A stretch of 23,666 nucleotides of DNA. Source: a virus (taxonomy: Duplodnaviria; Heunggongvirae; Uroviricota; Caudoviricetes). Below are positions 1-20,762 of this stretch, piece after piece. The notes below the pieces were generated by a model. It did not search any database and was not told the DNA's origin. It saw only the letters and a list, made by a program, of their open reading frames with translations. Each line of letters starts with the position of its first letter. Position 1 is the first letter of the stretch. The stretch lies in the IMG/VR virus record IMGVR_UViG_2617270998_000010. One strand, given 5' to 3'. The position numbers and the translations under genes are program-made.

Positions 1-1053
1 TTACGGGGTAATGCCAACCGCTGCCGCCACTTTGTCGCCACTTGGCAGCGTTGCCAGAGGATTGAAACGGAGCGCCGTTTCCAGATGATCCGGTGCCAGA
101 TGTGCGTAACGCATAGTCATTTTTATATCGTGGTGTCCGAGAATTTTTTGTAAGGCCAGAATGTTTCCACCCGACATCATGAAGTGCGCTGCAAACGTAT
201 GGCGCAGAACGTGTGTGAGTTGACCGCGAGGGAGCACGATAGACGTTTTTTCCATCACGGATAAAAATTGAAAATAGCAGTCTGTGAAGAAATTGAACCC
301 ATCGAGCGCCATGATCTCTTCGTAAAGCTCTTTACTGATAGGGATGCTTCTGTTTTTCTTCCCCTTCGTTCTGACAAAGGTAATTCGGTATTTGGTCACC
401 TGTGAGCGGGTAAGATTTACGGCTTCACGCCAGCGTGCGCCTGTGCTTAAGCATATCTTAACTACCAGTGCCAGAATTGGGTCCTGACGTTTGCAATCAG
501 CCAGCAATTCAACAATCTGCTCATGGGTAAGCCATGCCATCTCTTTTTCTGCGATGGTGAATTTTCGCATGTTCTCCAGTGGGTTCGGATACGACCATTC
601 GCCCAGACGGGATAGTTCGCTAAAAACACTACTTAGATAGCTTTGCTCCAGGTTAATGGTGACCGGGCTTGCTCCTTTCTTCCATTTCTCGCTGAAGTAG
701 ATCTCGCCTGTCAGGCGTTTATCTCGATAGTGAGCAAACATTTTTGAGGTGAGATCAGTTGCAAGGGGATTTCCCAAGGCGTCAACCATCAACAGCAGCT
801 TGTTGTAGACATGCTGTCCGGCAGTAAGAGATTTGCCATGTAATTTGAACCATAGCTCAACCATATCTTTCAGTGTCCGACGATCCACTGATTCGCCCAG
901 CCAGGGTTTTGCTTCTATTTCCCCCATGGTGTATCGCTCGAAGGCCAGTGCTTCGCCTTTGGTGGCGAATTGTTTACGCACACGGCGTCCGCTACGTCCG
1001 GCGGGGTAACATTCGCAAAGCCATTTTCCTGTGGTGAGTTTTCGTACTGCCAT
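1..1053 (-). CDS. int: Phage tyrosine integrase (P2/186 Int family)
   Basis: ORF 1..1068 (-). C-terminal tyrosine-recombinase motifs (HVLRHTFAAH ... GHHDIKMTMRYAHL). Stop codon is at bases 1-3, so the gene is complete. Start placed at the second ATG (1053, MAVRK...) which has a GAGGG Shine-Dalgarno; the upstream ATG at 1068 is the alternative. Confidence 0.9.
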   Translation of the reverse strand: MAVRKLTTGKWLCECYPAGRSGRRVRKQFATKGEALAFERYTMGEIEAKPWLGESVDRRTLKDMVELWFKLHGKSLTAGQHVYNKLLLMVDALGNPLATDLTSKMFAHYRDKRLTGEIYFSEKWKKGASPVTINLEQSYLSSVFSELSRLGEWSYPNPLENMRKFTIAEKEMAWLTHEQIVELLADCKRQDPILALVVKICLSTGARWREAVNLTRSQVTKYRITFVRTKGKKNRSIPISKELYEEIMALDGFNFFTDCYFQFLSVMEKTSIVLPRGQLTHVLRHTFAAHFMMSGGNILALQKILGHHDIKMTMRYAHLAPDHLETALRFNPLATLPSGDKVAAAVGITP

Positions 1054-1060
1054 AAAAAAT

Positions 1061-1078
1061 GCCCTCATATCAGAGGGC
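1061..1078 (-). terminator. GC-rich hairpin (GCCCTC-N6-GAGGGC) followed on the minus strand by a T-run, immediately 5' of the int start; terminator-like or translational control element
   Basis: Inverted repeat read directly; on the minus strand the order is stem-loop, ATTTTTT, then the int ATG. The stem contains the int SD (GAGGG). Confidence 0.35.
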
Positions 1079-1144: not shown

Positions 1145-2089
1145 TTAATCTGTTTCTTTATCACTTCCAGTTACTTTAACTTTGTCTTTGATTGTATTCA
1201 AAAATGACGCAAAACTCGGTGGTTGCTCTGTCTGACCTGAAAATGCAGAGTCACCTGAAATATTCCAATCCTTAAAGACTTCTATTGCATCCTCTTTAGT
1301 TGCTGTAGAACCGTATATCTGCAAAAAAACTTGACCAAACATCAAAGCATGTCGACGATCTTTTCGCCTGATCGATTCATGTGTGTACTTTTTTGAGTTA
1401 CTAAGGCAGATATATGATAGCCATGAAAGAATGGCGATTCCAACTAATCCTCGCGTGAAGATATATATTAACTGAAGGTTAGTGAGATTTTTTAAATCTA
1501 AGTTCATGTATAATGTAAAAAAAGCAGATACTACTGCAAGGAAGCCAAAAAATACCCCTGCAATAGACCAGATAATAGACATCAATATAAAATGTTTGTC
1601 ATCACTACCAAGATCTGATTTAACATCGTTAACATAGGTGGGGATTTTATCATCGATTCTTTGTTGCTGTACTTGGCTACGGAGTTCCTTATTTTCACTA
1701 ATCAATGAATTAATTTGTTTTACGTTGTTTTCGATTATTGCGTTTTTTCTATTAAGATCCTGAGTATAATGCTCTAACTGTAGAGTTAATATGCTGTTTC
1801 GTTCTTCTAATTGTATTATATGTTCTACATAATTATTAGGTTCAAGTGATTTTACATTTTTTCTTTTATTGGCTTTATTTTCATTTATATTGGGTTCTTC
1901 ATCCATCGGTGGCCTAGTTATGTATTTTTCAATTAGCGCTAGGTTATTATGAGCTTCAGAAAGCTCTCCTGCTTCTATTAAGTCTTTTATATGAGAGTAG
2001 AAGTGTTTTGCTATATTTTCAGACTGTGAATCAAGAAATTCTAATAGGTGTTTTTTTATTTCGCTATCTTTATTGGTTGGTTCAGTCAT
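1145..2089 (-). CDS. Hypothetical membrane protein: N-terminal coiled-coil region, two predicted TM helices, short C-terminal domain; AT-rich insertion between cI and int
   Basis: 314-aa ORF. Hydrophobic stretches ILMSIIWSIAGVFFGFLAVVSAFFTLYM and LIYIFTRGLVGIAILSWLSYICL. Clearly lower GC than the flanking int and cI. Only 11 bp downstream of the cI stop on the same strand. No family recognised. Confidence 0.6.
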   Translation of the reverse strand: MTEPTNKDSEIKKHLLEFLDSQSENIAKHFYSHIKDLIEAGELSEAHNNLALIEKYITRPPMDEEPNINENKANKRKNVKSLEPNNYVEHIIQLEERNSILTLQLEHYTQDLNRKNAIIENNVKQINSLISENKELRSQVQQQRIDDKIPTYVNDVKSDLGSDDKHFILMSIIWSIAGVFFGFLAVVSAFFTLYMNLDLKNLTNLQLIYIFTRGLVGIAILSWLSYICLSNSKKYTHESIRRKDRRHALMFGQVFLQIYGSTATKEDAIEVFKDWNISGDSAFSGQTEQPPSFASFLNTIKDKVKVTGSDKETD

Positions 2090-2100
2090 GATGTTTCTCT

Positions 2101-3036
2101 TTATACATTTTTAGTAAAAACTCTTTTACATTTTGCCAAAACGATAATGTCAGTAAGTAAGCATTCAAAACTTGCGTTAGTGCCTACAACTTTAACCATA
2201 CCAACGGGTATGCGAGTCAAATCTTTGATACTTATTTTCCCTTCAATATTCACAAGCCACTTGCCATCAGTAACTTCATTAAATTTTGATTCTACAATAT
2301 ATATTTCCTCATCAATGAATACTGCTAAAGGTTGCAGAAAGGTTCCTTCTAACAACTTAGAGTCAAAAGTCAAGAAGGTTTCTTGAGCAAGAGATCCATC
2401 AATTATTTTATGATATGGGATAGTGATAGTATCGTTTCGAGGCTTTTCAAACATTGCCCCGTTACCAGTGGTTAGCCATGTTAATGAAGCACCGGTTTCC
2501 AGTGAGCATTGAATAATCCAGTCAGCAGGAAAGGTATCTCTCATGTAACGATTGGCTAATGTACTTTTTGATACACCAATATGATCAGCTAAAGCTTGTC
2601 TTGTCTTAAATCCATAAGCCAAAACGATTCGCTCTATTGCTGCTTTTCCACCTTGGTTAATAGTAAAAGAGTTCTCATTTTGGATGTCTTGTTCTCTATT
2701 GAGATGTTGATGCTTGCTGTCACAATTGTTGTGACTTTTTTCTGCATTATTTGTAATGCTTCCCTTCTCGGTATCAGTGCCAAATGCCAACCACTCGACC
2801 GGCACTCCAGTCTCCATGCTACAGATAACAACCCAATCAGCAGGGAAAGTGTCACGGGCATACCTGTTCGCCATTGTACTTTGCGATATACCTAGGTGAT
2901 TACAGAATGCTTGTCGGGAAGAAAAACCATAGGCTTTCAGTATCCGATCTATAACCGATTGCCCTCCGCGATTCTGCATGATTAAGGATTTCTTTTTTTC
3001 GTCCACATGGCGAAATGTGATTTCATGTGTTGACAT
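2101..3036 (-). CDS. cI: Phage 186 CI-type immunity repressor with a tandemly duplicated N-terminal DNA-binding domain
   Basis: 311-aa ORF. Two internal repeats (about res 23-88 and 128-195) each resemble the 186 CI N-terminal HTH domain (...AYGF..RQA...HLGISQST.ANRY.RDTFPADW...ETG....WL.TG). Divergent from the Apl/CII operon, as in 186. Confidence 0.8.
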   Translation of the reverse strand: MSTHEITFRHVDEKKKSLIMQNRGGQSVIDRILKAYGFSSRQAFCNHLGISQSTMANRYARDTFPADWVVICSMETGVPVEWLAFGTDTEKGSITNNAEKSHNNCDSKHQHLNREQDIQNENSFTINQGGKAAIERIVLAYGFKTRQALADHIGVSKSTLANRYMRDTFPADWIIQCSLETGASLTWLTTGNGAMFEKPRNDTITIPYHKIIDGSLAQETFLTFDSKLLEGTFLQPLAVFIDEEIYIVESKFNEVTDGKWLVNIEGKISIKDLTRIPVGMVKVVGTNASFECLLTDIIVLAKCKRVFTKNV

Positions 3037-3895: not shown

Positions 3896-4096
3896 ATGCT
3901 GACGAAAGAACCATCATTTGCATCGCTGCTGGTAAAACAAAGTCCGGCAATGCACTACGGTCACGGCTGGATCATGGGTGAGGATGGTAAACGCTGGCAT
4001 CCGTGCCGTTCACAAGATGAATTGCTGGCAGAACTATCTACGAAAAAATGGGGGAACAAATGGCTATTGAAGGCGCTGCGGCGACTGTTCCATTAA
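3896..4096 (+). CDS. Hypothetical early protein
   Basis: ATG 3896 with GAGGTG SD inside ORF 3866..4096; about 66 aa; early-operon position; no family recognised. Confidence 0.4.
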   Translation: MLTKEPSFASLLVKQSPAMHYGHGWIMGEDGKRWHPCRSQDELLAELSTKKWGNKWLLKALRRLFH

Positions 4097-4401
4097 GACC
4101 CGGTGAACGCCTGAATGGACTTAATCATATTGCGGAGTTAAGGGCGAAAGTTTTTGGTTTGAATATTGAGTCAGAGCTTGAGCGGTTTATTAAAGATATG
4201 CGTGATCCACGGGATATCAATAATGAACAAAATAAACGGGCACTGGCTGCTATATTCTTTATGGCAAAAATTCCAGCTGAACGTCATAGCATCAGCATTA
4301 ATGAGCTGACCACTGACGAAAAGCGGGAGCTGATTAAAGCAATGAATCATTTTCGTGCGGTGGTGAGCTTATTTCCCAGACGGCTAACCATGCCGAATTA
4401 A
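4060..4401 (+). CDS. Hypothetical early protein
   Basis: ORF 4048..4401; probable start ATG 4060 (GGGGGA SD); short overlap with the upstream ORF in another frame. Confidence 0.4.
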   Translation: MAIEGAAATVPLRPGERLNGLNHIAELRAKVFGLNIESELERFIKDMRDPRDINNEQNKRALAAIFFMAKIPAERHSISINELTTDEKRELIKAMNHFRAVVSLFPRRLTMPN

Positions 4402-4468
4402 CCAACTAATGAAATTAATGGCGTAAACCCGCCGGGCATCCCTTTATCTAAATTCAGGAGAATTGATT

Positions 4469-4702
4469 ATGCGTAATATTGAAATCCTCACGACTAAAAC
4501 CGGACCGGATGACGCAGGGCTTAATATTTTACTGACAGAGGCTCGTCTGGAAGAACGCCGGGCAAGGGCTGAAGCAATGGCAGCTCGCCTTGATAGCCTG
4601 GCGTGTCATATCACATCCCGCCAGCTAAACCACGTCGAAGCGGCAGAACTGCTGCGTGTAACTGCTGAAGCAATCCAGAACGAAGCGCAGGAGATCCACT
4701 AA
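4469..4702 (+). CDS. Hypothetical early protein
   Basis: ATG 4469 preceded by AGGAG (ORF-track start 4463 is a TTG); 77 aa; its stop overlaps the next start (TAATG). Confidence 0.5.
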   Translation: MRNIEILTTKTGPDDAGLNILLTEARLEERRARAEAMAARLDSLACHITSRQLNHVEAAELLRVTAEAIQNEAQEIH

Positions 4703-4929
4703 TGGCTGATGCAATGGATCTCGTACAGCAGCGCGTTGAAGAAGAACGCCAGCGCCATATTCGTGCTGCCCGTGCCAAAACACCGGGCGTGTCTCGCGTG
4801 CTTTGTATTGAATGTGAAGCGCCAATTCCGCCAGCACGACGCCGCGCCATTCCGGGAGTGCAGCTTTGCATTACCTGCCAGGAAATCGCAGAGCTGAAAG
4901 GCAAACATTACAACGGAGGTGCTGTATGA
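4702..4929 (+). CDS. TraR/DksA-family C4 zinc-finger protein
   Basis: 75 aa with CxxC-N17-CxxC (CIECEAPIP...CITCQ) and an R-rich preceding helix; common in P2-like early operons; translationally coupled to its neighbours. Confidence 0.65.
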   Translation: MADAMDLVQQRVEEERQRHIRAARAKTPGVSRVLCIECEAPIPPARRRAIPGVQLCITCQEIAELKGKHYNGGAV

Positions 4930-5783
4930 GCACCATCCTGAAATGGGCGGGTAATAAAACCGCCATTATGTCCGAACTGAAAAAACACCTTCCTGCTGGC
5001 CCGCGACTGGTTGAACCTTTCGCGGGTTCCTGTGCTGTGATGATGGCGACGGATTACCCCAGCTATCTGGTTGCTGATATTAATCCTGATTTAATCAACC
5101 TCTATAAAAAGATTGCCGCTGATTGCGAATCATTTATATCTCGTGCCAGAGTCTTATTTGAGGAAGCAAACAGGGAGGTGGCTTATTACAACATAAGGCA
5201 GGAGTTTAATTACTCATCTGAAATTACTGATTTCATGAAAGCAGTATATTTCCTGTATCTCAATCGTCACGGTTACCGTGGGTTATGTCGTTATAACAAG
5301 AGCGGACATTTCAACATTCCCTACGGGAATTATAAAAATCCGTATTTCCCTGAAAAAGAAATTCGCGCATTTGCAGAAAAAGCCCAGCGGGCAACGTTTA
5401 TCTGCGCCAGCTTTGATGAAACGCTGGCGATGTTGAAGGCGGGGGATGTGGTGTATTGCGATCCGCCTTATGACGGTACGTTTTCCGGCTATCACACTGA
5501 TGGTTTCACTGAAGATGACCAGTATCACCTGGCATCCGTTCTTGAACATCGATCATCTGAAGGACATCCGGTCATTGTTTCTAACAGTGACACATCCCTG
5601 ATTCGTTCGCTGTATCGCAATTTTACTCACCACTATATCAAGGTAAAACGCAGCATCGGTGTGGCAGCTGGCGAGTGTAAATCAGCAACAGAAATCATCG
5701 CTGTTTCCGGGCCGCGCTGCTGGGTGGGATTTGATCCTTCGCGTGGCGTGGATAGTTCTGCCGTGTACGGAGTGCGTGCATGA
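4926..5783 (+). CDS. dam: DNA adenine methyltransferase (Dam-like, orphan N6-MTase)
   Basis: Start ATG 4926 inside ORF 4866..5783. N-terminus [20 protein letters not shown]...LVEPFAGS (AdoMet motif) and DPPY motif ([10 protein letters not shown]), similar to E. coli Dam. Confidence 0.85.
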
Positions 5784-8194
5784 GCCATGCTGATATGAAC
5801 AACTGCAGCGGCTTTAACGAGGTCGCAGCAGCATTCTCATGGAGCAGCCCGAAAAAGGCCATTAACCCTTATCTGGACCCGGCGGAAGTTGCGCCGGTTT
5901 CTGCGCTTTCAAACCTGATCACTCTGTACGCTGCCGATAACGAGCAGGAACAGCTGCGCCGTGAGGCGCTGAGTGATCAGGTCTGGGAGCGTTATTTCTT
6001 TAATGAATCCCGTGATCCTGTCCAGCGCGAAATCGAGCAGGATAAGCTCATTAGTCGGGCAAAGCTGGCGCATGAGCAGCAGCGTTTTAATCCGGATATG
6101 GTCATTCTGGCGGACGTCAACGCCCAGCCTTCCCATATCAGCAAGCCGCTGATGCAACGTATTGAATACTTCAGCAGCCTGGGCAGGCCAAAGGCTTATT
6201 CCCGCTATTTGCGTGAGACGATTAAGCCATGTCTGGAACGACTGGAGCATGTACGCGAGAGTCAGCTATCCACTTCTTTTCGCTTTATGGCAAGCCATGA
6301 AGGGCTGGACGGCCTGCTGATCCTGCCTGAAATGAGTCAGGATCAGGTGAAGCGCCTGTCTACCCTTGTTGCCGCGCATATGAGCATGTGCCTTGATGCA
6401 GCTTGTGGTGATTTGTATGCCACCGATGACGTTAAGCCAGAAGAAATCCGCAAGACATGGGAAAAGGTGGCAGCGGAAACCCTGCGTCTGGATGTAATCC
6501 CTCCTGCGTTTGAGCAACTCCGTCGGAAAAGAAACCGCCGTAAACCCGTGCCCTATGAACTCATTCCGGGTTCGCTGGCGCGTATGTTGTGCGCCGACTG
6601 GTGGTATCGGAAATTATGGAAGATGCGTTGCGAATGGCGGGAAGAGCAGTTGCGTGCTGTCTGCCTGGTCAGCAAAAAAGCATCTCCCTATGTCAGCTAT
6701 GAAGCCGTGATGCATAAACGTGAGCAGCGCCGTAAGTCGCTGGAGTTTTTCCGTTCTCATGAACTGGTGAACGAAGACGGCGACACGCTGGACATGGAGG
6801 ATGTGGTAAACGCCAGCAGCAGCAACCCGGCGCATCGCCGCAATGAGATGATGGCCTGTGTTAAAGGTCTGGAGCTTATCGCGGAAATGCGCGGTGACTG
6901 CGCCGTTTTCTACACCATCACCTGTCCGTCACGTTTCCATTCCACGCTCAATAACGGCAGACCAAACCCGACCTGGACAAACGCGACGGTAAGACAAAGC
7001 AGCGATTATCTGGTCGGCATGTTTGCTGCATTTCGTAAGGCGATGCACAAAGCCGGGTTGCGCTGGTATGGCGTGCGGGTGGCTGAGCCGCATCATGACG
7101 GCACAGTTCACTGGCACCTGTTGTGTTTCATGCGCAAAAAAGACCGCCGTGCCATCACTGCATTACTGCGTAAGTTTGCCATCCGTGAAGACCGCGAGGA
7201 GCTGGGCAATAACACTGGGCCGCGCTTTAAGTCTGAGTTGATTAACCCGCGCAAAGGAACGCCAACAAGCTACATCGCGAAATACATCAGTAAGAACATT
7301 GACGGGCGTGGTCTGGCTGGCGAGATCAGCAAGGAAACGGGGAAATCCCTGCGTGATAATGCTGAATACGTTAATGCCTGGGCGTCTCTGCATCGTGTTC
7401 AGCAATTCCGCTTCTTTGGCATTCCGGGGCGTCAGGCTTACCGTGAACTGCGATTGCTGGCTGGTCAGGCGGCAAGGCAACAGGGGGACAAAAAAGCAGG
7501 TGCGCCGGTACTGGATAACCCACGCCTTGATGCCATCCTGGCTGCTGCTGATGCTGGTTGTTTTGCCACCTACATCATGAAGCAGGGCGGCGTACTGGTT
7601 CCCCGCAAATATCACCTCATCAGAACCGCTTATGAAATCAACGAAGAGCCGACCGCCTATGGCGATCACGGCATTCGTATTTATGGCATCTGGTCACCTA
7701 TTGCAGAGGGCAAGATCTGCACTCATGCCGTGAAGTGGAAAATGGTTCGTAAGGCCGTTGATGTTCAGGAGGCGGCAGCCGACCAGGGCGCTTGCGCCCC
7801 TTGGACTCGTGGCAATAACTGTCCCCTTGCTGAAAATTTGAACCAACAGGAGAAAGATAAATCAGCTGATGGGGACACCAGAACGGATATTACCCGCATG
7901 GATGACAAGGAGTTGCACGATTTTCTGCACAGTATGAACAAAAAAGAGCGCCGGGAACTGGCTGCAAGGTTACGCCTGGTGAAACCGAAACGGCGTAGAG
8001 ACTACAAACAGCGAATTACAGACCATCAACGACAGCAGCTCGTCTATGAACTGAAGTCCAGAGGATTTGATGGCAGCGAGAAAGAGGTCGATTTACTCCT
8101 TCGCGGTGGCAGTATTCCGTCAGGAGCAGGCCTGCGTATCTTCTATCGGAACCAGCGTCTGAAGGAAGATGATAAGTGGCGGAACCTGTATTAA
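5780..8194 (+). CDS. A: Replication initiation endonuclease gpA (rolling-circle, HUH family)
   Basis: 804-aa ORF; HUH-like motif ([10 protein letters not shown]) and tyrosine motif ([14 protein letters not shown]); position and size match P2 gpA / 186 A; ATGA overlap with dam. Confidence 0.9.
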
Positions 8195-9049: not shown

Positions 9050-9265
9050 ATGTCAAGCATCGCCGCATTTAGCCTGGGTAACCCAGTTGAACGTCTGGCA
9101 AGGGTTCTTAAAGAGAACCAGGACAAACTCAATCTTAGTAAAGATGGTTTTGTGTCCGTAGACTTGTCTAACAAAAGAGCAATGGATGCCATCAAGGCAC
9201 AGATGGATAAGCTTGAAGGCATCAAAACGAGCACTGTAAAAGAGAAAACTAATAGAACCAGATAA
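9050..9265 (+). CDS. Hypothetical small soluble protein (71 aa), first gene of a coupled accessory pair
   Basis: ATG 9050 preceded by AAGGGGGAG; predicted helical and charged; stop overlaps the next start (TAATG at 9263-9267). Confidence 0.5.
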   Translation: MSSIAAFSLGNPVERLARVLKENQDKLNLSKDGFVSVDLSNKRAMDAIKAQMDKLEGIKTSTVKEKTNRTR

Positions 9266-10107
9266 TGGCAACATTACTTTTAGCAGTGATTTTGGTTAGT
9301 GGTTTTATTTATGTAAACCTATCACTTTCAACAAGATACCGATATAAGCGTTCCAACGGCTGGGACGCTTATTTTTTTGTGGCTGCCTGGGGTATCGTTT
9401 TTTTTCTCCTTGGCGGTTTTTTCACCTTTATTTTGAACGTCAGCGGAGGGTTTCGTTTGCTGGCTAATGCCTTGAATCTAACACCTGACAGTTTTAATGG
9501 CATGTTGTCTTCATCGAAAGACAAACTTCAAAGAATAAATGAAATTAAACAGATAGCATGGGTTATGATTTCAATTGTCCTCGCTGCGATTTCAGGTTTT
9601 GGAAATAAGTTACGCACATCACGTGGAGATCGTCGCTGGGATGCCTTAGCTAAAGCTGTGGGTAATAACGCTTTCGAATCATTACTTATGGAAGCGTCCG
9701 CAAGACAGTTTCCGATCATAGCAACTCTGTCGTCTCGCAAAATCTATGTTGGCCTTGTTACTTGTCCGGCGTTAGAAAACGGGCTTTCAGAGCACCTTGA
9801 ACTTCTCCCGATGTTAAGCGGATATCGGGATAAAGATGATCTAACGATTAGTATCACGACTAACTATCACCAACATTATCTTGATAGTGGTGTGATAAGT
9901 GGAATGTCTCGGCTTAATATCGAAGATTTCCGTGTGCTCATACCAAAAGATGAGGTTGAAACAATTTCGTTTTTTGATACTGAGACATATAACAAATTTA
10001 AAGAAAATGAAGCCAGGGATAGAAAGAACTGTCGAAAGATTGGTAGTAAAAGTGCATCTTCGCGCAGCAAGCGTGCAGCAGATGCTGAGTCAAATGATCG
10101 TGCATGA
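9265..10107 (+). CDS. Hypothetical membrane protein (three predicted N-terminal TM helices plus about 160-aa soluble C-terminal domain with basic tail)
   Basis: 280-aa ORF. Hydrophobic segments at res 3-20, 35-57 and 95-112. AT-rich. Sits between the tum module and cos, the old/tin position of P2. No family recognised. Confidence 0.6.
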   Translation: MATLLLAVILVSGFIYVNLSLSTRYRYKRSNGWDAYFFVAAWGIVFFLLGGFFTFILNVSGGFRLLANALNLTPDSFNGMLSSSKDKLQRINEIKQIAWVMISIVLAAISGFGNKLRTSRGDRRWDALAKAVGNNAFESLLMEASARQFPIIATLSSRKIYVGLVTCPALENGLSEHLELLPMLSGYRDKDDLTISITTNYHQHYLDSGVISGMSRLNIEDFRVLIPKDEVETISFFDTETYNKFKENEARDRKNCRKIGSKSASSRSKRAADAESNDRA

Positions 10108-10154
10108 CTATGCTGCATGAGATCGCATGATCGTTTGAGGATCATTTTTGCTAA

Positions 10155-10180
10155 GGCCCGCCAGAACTGGCGGGCTTTTG
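10155..10180 (+). terminator. Rho-independent terminator (GCCCGCC-N6-GGCGGGC followed by TTTT)
   Basis: Perfect 7-bp GC stem and T-tract read directly, 48 bp after the stop of the 9265..10107 gene. Confidence 0.7.
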
Positions 10181-10224
10181 CGTAGATCATGCAACTGCAT
10201 GAAAACCACTACATAAAGCGGGCA

Positions 10225-10243
10225 GGCGTGGCGGGGATACGAG
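10225..10243 (+). other. Probable cos site (19-nt cohesive end) GGCGTGGCGGGGATACGAG
   Basis: Close to the P2/186 cohesive-end sequence as I recall it (GGCG[A/T]GGCGGGGAAAGCA.), with GCGCGCT conserved just downstream; correct orientation relative to the portal gene. Confidence 0.5.
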
Positions 10244-10353
10244 CGCGCGCTCATGGTTGAATTAATGAAATTATGGTGTTAAATAGGCTAGCTTTTTAAG
10301 TCGTGAATATTCAATTTTTCAACTCATTTTTTTCATAGGGAGGAGTAATTGAC

Positions 10354-11052
10354 ATGGTTATGTTAGTGGATGACTGTCCACGATGTGGATCACAAAAAAT
10401 AGCGTTTGATGTTAATGGGCTGAATTGCACTAGGGTTTACAATGCATTGGGCGGGGGTAAAACATACGAGTACGAGGTCTATTGTGTTTGCCGAGAGTGT
10501 CATAAAACGACAATGTTTCTTTGCAGACCTTTAACGAAAAATAAAACTTTAGATGGCTATAATTGGAAAAGTGGAATATTCGGCTTAAAGGAAGTTGCAG
10601 AGGTTGTTAGGCCTATATCACCAGCAGACTTAGCAGTAGAGGAGCCACCAGAGTTCTTACCTGAGCATATCAATAGTGCATATGAGGAAGGGGCGAAATG
10701 TTTGGCTATAGGTTGTTATAATGCAGCAGCAACCATGTTTAGGCTTTGCCTTGATTATGCCACAAAAGGACTTCTTCCTGATGGGGAGCAAGGGCCTGCG
10801 CAAAAAATAAGGAGAAGCCTAGGGTTAAGAATGGAGTGGTTATTTGATAATCATCTACTGCCTGAAGCTTTAAGGGAACTAGCTGAATGCGTTAAAGATG
10901 ACGGAAATGATGGAGCGCATGAAGGTATTTTGGATAAAGCTGCTGCTGAGGATCTTGAAGATTTTACCTATCTTTTTTTAGAACGGCTTTACACTGAACC
11001 TCAACGCCTTATCGAAGCCAAGACAAGGCGTGAACAAAGAAGAAACAAATAA
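10354..11052 (+). CDS. Hypothetical protein: N-terminal Zn-ribbon (CPRCG...CRECH) plus C-terminal DUF4145/HEPN-like domain; accessory gene between cos and Q
   Basis: 232-aa ORF, ATG 10354 with GGGAGGAG SD. Two CxxC pairs in the first 50 residues. C-terminal alpha-helical region ending ...LAECVKDDGNDGAHEG resembles the GN-x-AH signature I associate with DUF4145. AT-rich; convergent with Q (stops 8 bp apart). Confidence 0.6.
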   Translation: MVMLVDDCPRCGSQKIAFDVNGLNCTRVYNALGGGKTYEYEVYCVCRECHKTTMFLCRPLTKNKTLDGYNWKSGIFGLKEVAEVVRPISPADLAVEEPPEFLPEHINSAYEEGAKCLAIGCYNAAATMFRLCLDYATKGLLPDGEQGPAQKIRRSLGLRMEWLFDNHLLPEALRELAECVKDDGNDGAHEGILDKAAAEDLEDFTYLFLERLYTEPQRLIEAKTRREQRRNK

Positions 11053-11060
11053 GTTCGGAA

Positions 11061-12098
11061 TTATTCTTCTGAAAGAATATAGGGCGTAAATTTAATCACT
11101 TCTTCGCCCAGCCAGTCGTTCAGCTCTTGTAGCCTTTTTTGCAAGGGCGTTAATTCATTACGTACAAATACGCGACTGGCTTTCTCCACATCCCCAAACC
11201 CCCCGACATTATTAGGCATTATCCCCATCATTTGTGGCGGCACACGATGCGCCGCCATCATGTCGTCCCGGCTCACGTTCTTGATATTCAGGAACTCATC
11301 CTTCGCCGCCACTTCTGACAACGGGATAATCTGAAGCCCGTCCTTTTTACCGTTAGGCGAGTACATAAACAGGTTACGGAAGTTACCAGGACCTTTGGCG
11401 CTTTTCATCGCATTGCGGAGGTTGTTCACATCCTCCTGGTTCTGCGCAGCATCGGTCATGTACATGATGAAGCCTGCATGACTGCCGTTAATGTAATACT
11501 TGCGGCGGAACAGCGTGGCGGACTCGTTGAGCAGAGCTGACGGAATGGCAGAAAGATAACCGGGCAGGCCGTAGATCTCCTGGTTGATGTCCGGTTCCAT
11601 CAGATGAAAAATGTTGCCTTTCGTGAACTGATACGACTGCGTAGTCATACCGTATTGCACAAACCAGTAGGTATCCAGGTCTAACCCGCGTCGGGTGTAT
11701 TTTGCCAGTGCAGGCTCAAGGGCGATAACTTCACCGAAGCGGTTCGTGCGTTTCTCCAGGTAGGCGTTACCAAAAACCAGATAGTCCTGTACAAAACGCG
11801 AAAAAGCCTGCTGGCTGAGCAGCGGGTGAGGGATGTAGGTGCTGGTCAGAATGTTGCACTTCACTGCAATCGGTGAGCTGTGATGCACGGCGGCGCGGAA
11901 GGTTCGCGCCAGTCCGTCGAAACTCACAGGCGGCTCATACCAACGATCCATCTGTACGCATTCCACATAGTCCAGCAGTTCGCGGCGGTCCAGAACAGGA
12001 ACGGGATCACCGAAGCTGAATGCTTCGGCTGAAGTCTGGCTTTTATGCTGGATCTGTTTCGTCGACGCAGCGCGGTTTTTCTTACTCTTTCCCATCAA
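11061..12098 (-). CDS. Q: Portal protein gpQ
   Basis: 345-aa ORF, size and position as P2 Q; overlaps the P stop (ATGA-type overlap at 12095-12098). Confidence 0.9.
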   Translation of the reverse strand: MMGKSKKNRAASTKQIQHKSQTSAEAFSFGDPVPVLDRRELLDYVECVQMDRWYEPPVSFDGLARTFRAAVHHSSPIAVKCNILTSTYIPHPLLSQQAFSRFVQDYLVFGNAYLEKRTNRFGEVIALEPALAKYTRRGLDLDTYWFVQYGMTTQSYQFTKGNIFHLMEPDINQEIYGLPGYLSAIPSALLNESATLFRRKYYINGSHAGFIMYMTDAAQNQEDVNNLRNAMKSAKGPGNFRNLFMYSPNGKKDGLQIIPLSEVAAKDEFLNIKNVSRDDMMAAHRVPPQMMGIMPNNVGGFGDVEKASRVFVRNELTPLQKRLQELNDWLGEEVIKFTPYILSEE

Positions 12099-18996: not shown

Positions 18997-19435
18997 ACTG
19001 CAGAAGGTGGACGACTGGCTGAGTGCATTATTGGCGAATCTGGAGCCAGCCGCAAGAAGCCGCATGATGCGCCAGCTGGCGCAGGAACTGCGCCGGACAC
19101 AGCAGCAGAACATCAGGATGCAGCGCAATCCAGATGGCAGCAGTTATGAGCCGCGCAGGGTAACAGCACGCAGCAAAAAGGGGCGCATCAAACGTCAGAT
19201 GTTTGCGAAGCTGCGCACCACAAAATACCTGAAAACTGCCGCCAGCGCCGACTCTGCCAGCGTGCAGTTTGAAGGCAAGGTGCAGCGCATTGCCCGCGTT
19301 CATCACTACGGCCTGCGTGATCGCGTCAGTCGCAAAGGACCTGAGGTCCGTTATGCAGAGCGTCGTTTGTTAGGGGGGAATGATGAAGTAGAAACTCGAA
19401 CTAGGAATATCCTAGTTCGATGGCTTATAAGTTAG
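18989..19435 (+). CDS. S: Tail completion protein gpS (3' end lies in AT-rich inserted DNA)
   Basis: 148 aa, size as P2 S (150 aa); the last roughly 13 codons fall in the AT-rich segment that carries the downstream accessory gene. Confidence 0.8.
   Translation: MAELQKVDDWLSALLANLEPAARSRMMRQLAQELRRTQQQNIRMQRNPDGSSYEPRRVTARSKKGRIKRQMFAKLRTTKYLKTAASADSASVQFEGKVQRIARVHHYGLRDRVSRKGPEVRYAERRLLGGNDEVETRTRNILVRWLIS
19397..19419. terminator. Perfect palindrome CGAACTAGG-AATAT-CCTAGTTCG at the convergent junction of S and the accessory gene; candidate bidirectional terminator
   Basis: 9-bp stems and 5-nt loop read directly; lies just 3' of the minus-strand gene stop (19432) and inside the last codons of S. 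Confidence 0.4.
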
Positions 19436-20091
19436 CTCTTATTTTTGGATGAGCGTAAAAGACTCATTAATTCTATGATGATTTTTTCTTGAAGTAGATT
19501 GGGGGTTTTTTCGAAACTTACATTGTGTTCACGTAATGTTTGAATGATTGTGCCGAACTCATCAGTATCACCTTGCGATAGTAAGAATGCAATTCTCTGG
19601 TTGTCATAGTCGTTGCTCATTTGCATGTTGTATTTAATGAACACAATAAATAACCGAAGTATATATCCAGTGAATAATATTCCAGATAAGATTAGTAAAT
19701 AAGGTGCCGCGGTTTCAATGGCTTTTTCAAAGGTGCTTTTAGTATTTAGGTATGTTGAATTAATACCTGATTCATTTTTTTTGATTATCGGGTTTGAATT
19801 TTTTGAAGCGTTGAGGTTTTCTGATGCTTGTGCAAGTTTATCAGTTAACTGTTGCATGATGGTGAACTTTTCGAAAGCAGATTCTATTTGCTGAGAGCTC
19901 AATCTAAGTGAGGCAAGTGCATTGTCACGCTTATTACTTTCTGCTTTATAAAAAATATAAGTTGCAGGAATGCAGAGTACAGCAGTTAATAAAATATATA
20001 AAAATAAGAGCGTAGTAATTTTAGAGCGGCTAGCTCGTTTTTCCATTGTTTTCAATATTTCGTTATATTTTTGTTCGTCAAGAACCATCAT
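19432..20091 (-). CDS. Hypothetical membrane protein (two predicted TM helices flanking a roughly 80-aa polar/coiled segment); AT-rich insertion between S and V
   Basis: ORF 19432..20193 (-). Preferred start is the ATG-ATG at 20091/20088 (AAGGA about 12 nt upstream); the ORF-track start is a GTG at 20193 that would overlap V. TM-like segments ITTLLFLYILLTAVLCIPATYIFY and AAPYLLILSGILFTGYILRLFIVFI. No family recognised. Confidence 0.55.
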   Translation of the reverse strand: MMVLDEQKYNEILKTMEKRASRSKITTLLFLYILLTAVLCIPATYIFYKAESNKRDNALASLRLSSQQIESAFEKFTIMQQLTDKLAQASENLNASKNSNPIIKKNESGINSTYLNTKSTFEKAIETAAPYLLILSGILFTGYILRLFIVFIKYNMQMSNDYDNQRIAFLLSQGDTDEFGTIIQTLREHNVSFEKTPNLLQEKIIIELMSLLRSSKNKS

Positions 20092-20118
20092 CTTAAATTT
20101 TATCCTTGGAAGATACAT

Positions 20119-20136
20119 TGTGCCATTTATAGCACA
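20119..20136. promoter_or_regulatory. TGT-N12-ACA dyad within a perfect palindrome (ATTGTGC-N9-GCACAAT), candidate Ogr/B site of late promoter PV
   Basis: Read directly; about 50 bp upstream of the V start, with a GATAAT -10-like hexamer at 20162-20167; lies in the divergent gap between V and the accessory gene. Confidence 0.45.
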
Positions 20137-20183
20137 ATGTACCTGATCTACCGTAGAAGTCGATAATTCATCATCCTTAGTAG

Positions 20184-20762
20184 ATGAACGCACAACTAAC
20201 AGAAATCATGCGCCTTATCACCAACCTGATCCGCACAGGGGTAGTCACCGAAGTGGACCGGGAAAACTGGCTTTGCCGGGTGAAAACGGGCGAGCTTGAA
20301 ACCAACTGGATCAGCTGGCTGACGCTGCGTGCCGGGAATGCCCGCACATGGTGGCGACCATCGGAAGGTGAGCAGGTGGTGGTGCTGAGTCTGGGAGGCA
20401 ATCTGGAAACTGCCTTTGCGTTGCCCGCAGTCTATTCGAATCAGTTCGCGCCACCTTCGACGTCGGCGGACGCCTGCGTGACAGAACATCCTGACGGTGG
20501 CTGGTTTGAATACGAACCCGCCACCGGGCGCTGGTATGTCAGGGGCATCAAATCCATGGTCATTGAGGCTGCCGACAACATCACCCTGAAAACCAGTGAG
20601 TTTGTGCTGGAGGCTGACCGCACGCGTATTAACAGCGAAGTAGTGATCAATGGTGGCGTTACCCAGGGCGGCGGTGCAATGAGTTCTAACGGAATTGTGG
20701 TTGATGCACATCAACATACTGGCGTCCTGAAAGGCGGCGATACAACCGGAGGCCCGGTATGA
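20184..20762 (+). CDS. V: Baseplate spike protein gpV
   Basis: 192 aa; IRTGVVTEVD...CRVKTGELETNWISWLTLRAGNARTWWRPSEGEQ parallels recalled P2 gpV (IRTGIIVETD...CRVQTGGMCTDWLQWLTHRAGRSRTWWAPSVGEQ). Confidence 0.85.
   Translation: MNAQLTEIMRLITNLIRTGVVTEVDRENWLCRVKTGELETNWISWLTLRAGNARTWWRPSEGEQVVVLSLGGNLETAFALPAVYSNQFAPPSTSADACVTEHPDGGWFEYEPATGRWYVRGIKSMVIEAADNITLKTSEFVLEADRTRINSEVVINGGVTQGGGAMSSNGIVVDAHQHTGVLKGGDTTGGPV

Follow-up and report, generated by a model that had tools for sequence, protein, structure and literature searches.

Gene content of the prophage and its cos-Q interval

The window (the whole stretch of DNA analysed, 23,666 nucleotides) is a P2-like prophage of the 186/Fels-2 type, in which an integrase gene (1-1068, minus strand) is followed by the genes of CI, CII, Dam methylase, gpA (replication gene A, 5780-8194) and DinI, two cargo ORFs, cos, an ORF for a 232-aa protein, the portal gene Q, the terminase gene P and the late genes. 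The 232-aa ORF (10354..11052, plus strand) begins with an ATG codon 8 nt downstream of a Shine-Dalgarno sequence (GGGAGGAG, 10338-10345, plus strand) and encodes a zinc-ribbon and DUF4145/HEPN protein resembling RAZR. The portal gene (11061..12098, minus strand; Pfam Phage_portal, E=7.8e-19) is convergent with this RAZR-like gene, leaving 8 bp between the two stop codons. From the end of cos to the stop codon of Q there are 817 bp, and the GC content of this interval (10244-11060) is 0.405, versus 0.551 for Q plus P and 0.572 for the late genes; in P2, cosL occupies positions 1-19 and the Q stop is at position 187, a gap of 167 bp that holds only the tQ terminator. These figures agree with a preliminary description of this DNA, which placed the end of the portal gene of P2 a short distance from cos and noted roughly 800 bp of AT-rich DNA with its own strong Shine-Dalgarno sequence in the window. 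The ORF is evidently not a chance ORF, because homologues with 54-88% identity hold the same position in prophages of E. coli, Klebsiella and Serratia: those with 88%, 66% and 54% identity (from Enterobacteriaceae, Klebsiella and Serratia, respectively) all occupy the cos-Q slot, convergent with Q and 8-32 bp from its stop codon.

The core of cos is a 19-nt cohesive-end sequence (GGCGTGGCGGGGATACGAG, 10225..10243, plus strand) that matches the annotated cosL of P2 (GGCGAGGCGGGGAAAGCAC) at 14 of 19 bases; the cos location proposed earlier was thus correct, but for a position one base too far to the right. A block of 26 nt (GGCGTGGCGGGGATACGAGCGCGCGC) is identical across the enterobacterial loci that contain the core pattern, P2 and Serratia excepted, and directly 3' of this block the sequences part ways. 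A relaxed search found cos with one mismatch in Klebsiella phage 4LV2017 and a more altered copy in phage 500465-1. The conserved cos segment (10100..10250, plus strand), common to Fels-2 and to P2-like phages of Klebsiella and Salmonella, is the left flank of a variable slot: 58 phage records match it at 93-97% identity but do not match the DNA to its right, and the equivalent stretch in the record of Escherichia phage Cartapus is annotated as a putative cos site.

Within the conserved segment there is a GC-rich hairpin followed by UUUU (10153..10179, plus strand). The RNA of positions 10125-10200 folds at -34.4 kcal/mol (z = -5.0) with an 11-bp stem, a GAAC loop and a U-run, and the hairpin, which was not flagged by a consensus terminator scan, is probably the intrinsic terminator of the upstream cargo operon on the A side; alternatively, lying about 45 bp 5' of the cos core, it could be part of the cos recognition region. 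Downstream of cos, a weak candidate sigma-70 promoter was read by eye from the sequence (TTGAAT, 17 nt, TAAATA, with TG at 10277-10278; 10257..10285, plus strand). Its -35 block is kept in the loci of the 88% and 66% homologues, but its -10 block is not, and a consensus scan found no plus-strand promoter, this candidate included. The consensus scan also found no terminator between the convergent RAZR-like gene and Q.

Other features of the window were noted. The CI repressor (2101-3036, minus strand, 311 aa) is matched by the Phage_CI_repr helix-turn-helix model in two stretches, so that its DNA-binding domain appears to be duplicated. Between the integrase and CI repressor genes, a 314-aa ORF (1145-2089, minus strand) with no significant Pfam or PADLOC match forms an island of 30-36% GC that is likely another moron slot. 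A further island, of 33% GC, separates tail gene S from baseplate gene V and holds a 253-aa ORF (19432-20193, minus strand) that is read in the opposite direction to the late operon and has only a sub-threshold DUF3112 match; since Cartapus has a different gene here, for a 176-aa hypothetical protein, the S-V position is a third variable slot.

Domain architecture of the 232-aa protein and its relation to RAZR

The 232-aa protein consists of an N-terminal Cys4 zinc ribbon, a linker and a C-terminal DUF4145 domain with the HEPN helical fold, all encoded on the plus strand. The zinc-ribbon domain (ZFD; codons 1-60, 10354..10533), a putative sensor, contains two CxxC pairs (C8-x2-C11 and C46-x2-C49; 10375-10386 and 10489-10500), of which all four cysteines are invariant in 27 of 27 aligned family members, and both pairs are present in 208 of 228 full-length members. 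The linker (ISPADLAVEEPPEFLP, codons 88-103, 10615..10662) has invariant D92, P99 and P103 in the alignment of 27 homologues. The DUF4145/HEPN domain (codons 101-215, 10654..10998), a putative RNase effector, scores 30.3 bits against Pfam PF13643 (gathering cut-off 23.1; aa 114-203), a domain that is present in all listed homologues. In the same 27-homologue alignment the C-terminal half of the protein is highly conserved, with invariant R130, R159, K181, N185 and H189 and the motif CVKDDGNDGAH. Pairs of family members share on average 42% identity in the ZFD and 28% in the linker but 69% in the HEPN domain, and the AlphaFold2 model (mean pLDDT 84) is beta-rich in the N-terminal domain and helical in the C-terminal domain. 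The CxxC pairs, the GN-x-AH-type motif (G184-N185-D-G-A188-H189), the helical C-terminal domain and the DUF4145/HEPN identity had all been proposed in the preliminary description, and they are borne out by these alignments, the structure prediction and the profile score.

The putative active site is the motif K-D-D-G-N-D-G-A-H (codons 181-189, 10894..10920), equivalent to R146-x7-H154 of RAZR. Compared with the HEPN motif Rx4-6H, K181-x3-N185-x3-H189 has the x7 spacing of DUF4145 proteins and lysine in place of arginine. N185 and H189 are invariant even in comparison with distant phage homologues (17-30% identity). The residue eight positions before the histidine is lysine in all 27 close members, lysine in 162 and arginine in 73 members of the wider family, and arginine in all 120 RAZR-family proteins. 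Because both residues occur at this position within the clade, lysine seems to be an acceptable substitute for the catalytic base rather than a sign that the site has been lost.

RAZR, of which there are representatives in E. coli UMB1727 and K. variicola (PDB 9Y9C/9Y6U), was first found by functional selection as PD-T7-4, under the description "Zn finger-HEPN" (Vassallo et al. 2022, PMC9519451), and was later renamed ring-activated zinc-finger RNase (Zhang et al., Nature 2026, PMC13017515). Its N-terminal Cys4 zinc ribbon is followed by a DUF4145/HEPN RNase at the C-terminus, in which R146 and H154 are essential; alone it is non-toxic, but a RAZR 24-mer assembles around phage rings, either portals (T7, T3, SECphi18) or an Erf-like recombinase, and the ring-bound protein cleaves ssRNA and aborts infection (PMC13017515). 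[quoted passage not shown]

Neither a single-sequence phmmer search nor a narrow family profile (A1) gave anything relevant among the PDB sequences, RAZR included, but a profile broadened with distant phage homologues gave RAZR (9y9c_OA, E=7.9e-8) as its sole significant match. The RAZR sequence was obtained from this PDB alignment and a homologue search. BLASTP against the recovered segment gave 26% identity over 136 residues (E=1e-5), and the segment was also used to retrieve and align the RAZR family for hhalign, which paired that family with the family of the 232-aa protein over 115 columns (E=0.0044, at a probability of only 7.9%). The profile, BLASTP and hhalign alignments agree that H189 corresponds to H154 and K181 to R146 of RAZR, ICRIVGNQAVH154 being paired with CVKDDGNDGAH189, and in all three the linker ISPADLAVEEPPEFLP is paired with RAZR 64-IIPAAGNVELPNPDMP. 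In none of these alignments, hhalign included, could the ZFD be aligned with that of RAZR, and there are about 27 extra residues between the second CxxC pair and the linker.

With PADLOC the 232-aa protein has one weak match, PD-T7-4 (26.1 bits, E=1.2e-6), and no NCBIfam model matches either this protein or RAZR. The PD-T7-4 model gives 337-339 bits to RAZR-family proteins of E. coli and K. variicola and 25-31 bits to the family of the 232-aa protein, with alignments that begin at the first CxxC pair; on these scores, the 232-aa protein evidently belongs to a separate clade that is distantly related to RAZR and has the same architecture. Since the relationship is so distant (the low bit scores, the missed PDB matches and the hhalign probability), the mechanism of RAZR may not transfer to the 232-aa protein, and since the ZFD cannot be aligned and has about 27 residues more, the trigger may be of another kind than a ring. 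Phage homologues found by tblastn (in Shigella phage POCJ13, Escherichia phage PhiR5_2, Burkholderia phage phi644-2 and Gordonia phage Meyran), together with a second DUF4145 protein of E. coli SW070919, were also considered as true RAZR proteins and rejected, all scoring at most 22 bits with the PD-T7-4 model.

Variable slots on both sides of cos and distribution of the family

The interval between gpA and gpQ, adjacent to cos, is a published hotspot of defence genes: Rousset et al. 2022 (PMC9122126) give 1,650 arrangements in 18,150 loci, and Vassallo et al. 2022 (PMC9519451) name it "P2 defence hotspot #1". The RAZR-like gene sits in the Q-proximal half of this hotspot. A protein that differs from the 232-aa protein by one residue (WP_000245245) is present in the arrangement table of Rousset et al., although it was not found among the tested systems in the available part of that paper (PMC9122126). 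The type of gene, the hotspot and the protein cluster are therefore already on record, and the location is not unusual, contrary to the preliminary description, whose interpretation as a whole is partly supported.

The contents of the cos-Q slot differ from one prophage to another. Gene 1 of Cartapus, a prophage of E. coli LF82 that is induced spontaneously (PMC9928086), is 99.6% identical to the RAZR-like gene, lies directly after the putative cos and is annotated as a DUF4145 domain-containing protein. Matching flanks were found in 1,287 of 5,426 complete E. coli genomes, but only 41 of them carry the gene. The slot holds sieB in E. coli SW070919, a gene for a 208-aa 2TM-like protein in E. 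coli MS 145-7, a gene for a 351-aa PIN protein in E. coli AREA_486, two hypothetical genes in E. coli 23-AB02114, a TIR gene in phage 500465-1, retron St85 (effector and RT) in Klebsiella phage 4LV2017, which is of the same genus as Cartapus, a gene for an 89-aa Cas2-like protein in Klebsiella phage ST512-KPC3phi13.6, a gene for a 565-aa hypothetical protein in Fels-2, and hicAB together with the 54% homologue of the RAZR-like gene in Serratia; P2 and the Yersinia phages have no cargo here.

The DinI-to-cos side varies independently, holding GAPS4, HipA/HIRAN, an HNH endonuclease, another DUF4145 protein, or a pair of 71-aa and 280-aa proteins, and in P2 the cargo genes tin and old are all on the A side of cos, with the cos-Q side empty. 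Thus, the gpA-gpQ hotspot is two independent slots that flank cos, a split that was not found in the available parts of the published hotspot descriptions (PMC9122126, PMC9519451). In the window, the A-side slot (9050-10107, plus strand, the position of tin and old) is filled by a two-gene cassette of 41% GC, in which the stop codon of a 71-aa ORF (phrog_9843) overlaps the start codon of a gene for a 280-aa protein (phrog_3630) with N-terminal membrane segments; neither protein has a Pfam, PADLOC or NCBIfam assignment, and the cassette is a candidate defence pair. E. coli SW070919 (NZ_CM129861) has in its A-side slot the other DUF4145 protein (2115-2855 of locus L003, minus strand, 246 aa), with sieB on the Q side, so that DUF4145 variants, ZFD-less or otherwise different, are a recurrent cargo of the hotspot; the motif of the SW070919 protein, AIKFLGNAGSH, also has lysine.

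The Q-side slot begins about 8 bp past the cos core and ends inside the last ~40 codons of Q (11061..11180, minus strand), which vary together with the cargo. In prophages that do not carry the RAZR-like gene, portal identity is 97-99% across the middle of the protein and drops to 42-69% in the final 40 residues, and megablast matches to Q in these prophages begin at about 11087-11180 of the window. Because the portal tail varies with the cargo, the right recombination boundary of the slot must lie inside Q, which matters for the annotation and mining of hotspots.

Clustered at 50% identity, the family of the 232-aa protein comprises 221 clusters at E<=1e-30, 671 at E<=1e-10 and 1,735 at E<=1e-3, and about half of the sampled members are outside phages. 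At about 50% identity, the homologues of Pseudomonas, Thiodiazotropha and Oceanimonas adjoin integrases, and the surroundings of one in Nitrospira show no obvious sign of mobility. From these varied contexts and integrase neighbours, it follows that the gene is a free-standing mobile unit and not a component of the packaging machinery. More distant homologues were observed in other phages. In the actinophage Meyran of Gordonia (ON724009), a zinc-ribbon and DUF4145 homologue with 27% identity is gene 1 (94-783 of locus L012, plus strand), directly 3' of the cohesive end and ahead of the terminase genes, a position that parallels the one in the window. In Shigella phage POCJ13 and Escherichia phage PhiR5_2, which are of the lambdoid/Stx type, a 25% identical homologue (about 4001-4714 of loci L009 and L010, plus strand) is found in the replication/nin region beside a HigBA-like toxin-antitoxin pair, and its annotated start seems 13 codons short by comparison with the tblastn alignment.

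Possible function and comparison with known systems

On balance, the RAZR-like gene is probably a stand-alone, horizontally exchanged moron that encodes a divergent abortive-infection protein of the RAZR type. By analogy with RAZR, the protein would be made in the lysogen and would be inactive alone. Upon infection by a heterologous phage, its variable zinc-ribbon domain would bind a phage-encoded protein assembly, which by the precedent of RAZR would be a large ring (a portal or an Erf-like recombinase, for example); binding would order HEPN dimers into an active oligomer, and the oligomer, with lysine in place of arginine, would cleave RNA non-specifically, so that translation would stop and the infection would abort, to the benefit of the prophage and of the lysogens as a population. 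Predicted from this analogy are expression in the lysogen, oligomerisation, RNase activity of the lysine variant, the nature of the trigger and the anti-phage phenotype. Against it, the dodecameric portal of the prophage itself, encoded next door, would have to be a non-trigger, the essential R146 is replaced by lysine, and no convincing promoter was found upstream of the gene.

The protein might instead be a HEPN RNase or toxin that serves the lytic programme of the phage or counter-defence, for example by degrading RNA of the host or of a competitor, rather than a sensor that protects the lysogen. The location of the gene at the very terminus of the packaged DNA, with the late packaging genes as neighbours, and the many roles of HEPN domains in conflicts (PMC3710099) would suit such a function, as would the fact that clear expression in the LF82 lysogen is reported for other morons of Cartapus but not for its copy of the gene (PMC9928086). 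This explanation is nevertheless unlikely: the gene is oriented against the late P-Q operon and is not within it, most close relatives lack it and have classical defence cargo instead (retron, TIR, SieB), members of the family adjoin integrases outside phages, and the closest homologue to have been characterised is an Abi protein that protects its host.

A nucleic-acid-binding or catalytically altered protein, acting as a regulator or as an addiction-type stabiliser without RNase-based defence, is a still more doubtful proposition. The entire protein matches phrog_1305 (E=9.5e-53), which is labelled "DNA binding protein", but this label is annotation only. The lysine at position 181, where RAZR requires arginine, and the absence of the canonical motif from about 20% of DUF4145 members (PMC3710099) could be taken to mean that catalysis has been altered, but H189 and N185 are retained down to 17-30% identity, and the interchange of lysine and arginine within the family points to a retained basic residue with a catalytic role. 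As for an addiction function, no antitoxin-like partner travels with the gene in the loci of the 88%, 66% and 54% homologues.

The linkage of the gene to the portal tail allows another, very improbable elaboration, in which the RAZR-like gene and the portal are a co-adapted pair that senses P2-type portal rings, those of its own prophage included, and is harmless to self in two ways: the gene would move as one recombination module with a portal tail that is a non-triggering "self" variant, and late P-Q transcription would run antisense through the gene. Such read-through is conceivable because the genes converge on stop codons 8 bp apart and lack a canonical terminator between them, and antisense transcripts could, speculatively, silence the RAZR-like gene while the prophage makes its own portal. 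On this reading the RAZR-like gene would act mainly against superinfecting P2-like relatives, or against P4-type satellites, that use foreign portals. A comparison of C-terminal portal tails between carriers and non-carriers gave no signal beyond simple linkage to the cargo, and the idea of co-adaptation is therefore speculative. Least credible of all is a packaging accessory factor acting at cos or the portal, which would explain the fixed cos-Q position of the 88%, 66% and 54% homologues in three genera and the place of the Meyran homologue between the cohesive end and the terminase genes, but which is hard to reconcile with a slot that is empty in P2 and the Yersinia P2-like phages and holds unrelated genes in most relatives, with the rarity of the gene in E. 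coli (41 of about 1,287 genomes that have related flanks), with the half of sampled family members that are outside phages, and with the low GC content of the interval, which is typical of morons.

If the predicted activity of the RAZR-type protein is real, its clade would extend the principle of RAZR, the gating of a HEPN RNase by a zinc-ribbon sensor, to a separate family that is large, differs from RAZR in a larger sensor domain and a lysine variant of the active site, and receives only a weak sub-family score (26 bits) from the PADLOC model of PD-T7-4. Because the ZFD sets the trigger specificity of RAZR, this clade would be a natural set of alternative sensors for probing which phage assemblies can be recognised. 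The RAZR-like gene does not overturn current understanding; its product is, judging by its sequence, a new, divergent and apparently uncharacterised ZFD-HEPN member of the RAZR type with a predicted activity, and full-text literature searches found no published anti-phage test of the clade.

Like RAZR, the 232-aa protein is a single protein of about 220-230 aa in which a Cys4 zinc ribbon is followed by a linker (I-x-P-A...V-E-x-P...P) and DUF4145/HEPN, with a G-N-x3-H motif of which the histidine is aligned (H189 = H154), a hypervariable ZFD and a conserved HEPN domain; both are encoded on mobile elements, and distant members of the clade adjoin integrases. Unlike RAZR, with which its identity of 24-26% is confined to the linker and HEPN region, it has a larger ZFD, with extra beta-strands and the ~27 additional residues ahead of the linker, and lysine for the essential Arg146, and its gene is in the P2-like cos-Q slot, whereas RAZR-type genes overlap an integrase gene. 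DS-38 of DefensePredictor (WP_001313577, PMC13092281) is a validated E. coli defence protein that likewise combines HEPN with a zinc finger, but it has 366 aa and the reverse domain order (HEPN N-terminal, multi-Cys zinc finger C-terminal); it was rejected as a counterpart of the 232-aa protein, being of another family and not homologous in architecture. Within the Pfam DUF4145/HEPN superfamily, the protein shares the HEPN fold, and fusion to a zinc ribbon is a listed DUF4145 architecture (Anantharaman et al. 2013, PMC3710099); where the superfamily has Rx4-6H, its K-x3-N-x3-H is the R-x7-H of DUF4145 with lysine for arginine. Like the tin/old locus of P2-like phages, the locus has its gene between A and Q, beside cos and in low-GC DNA, with contents that differ among near-identical prophages and include known defence systems; unlike P2 itself, in which the Q side of cos is empty, the prophage in the window has both sides filled independently.
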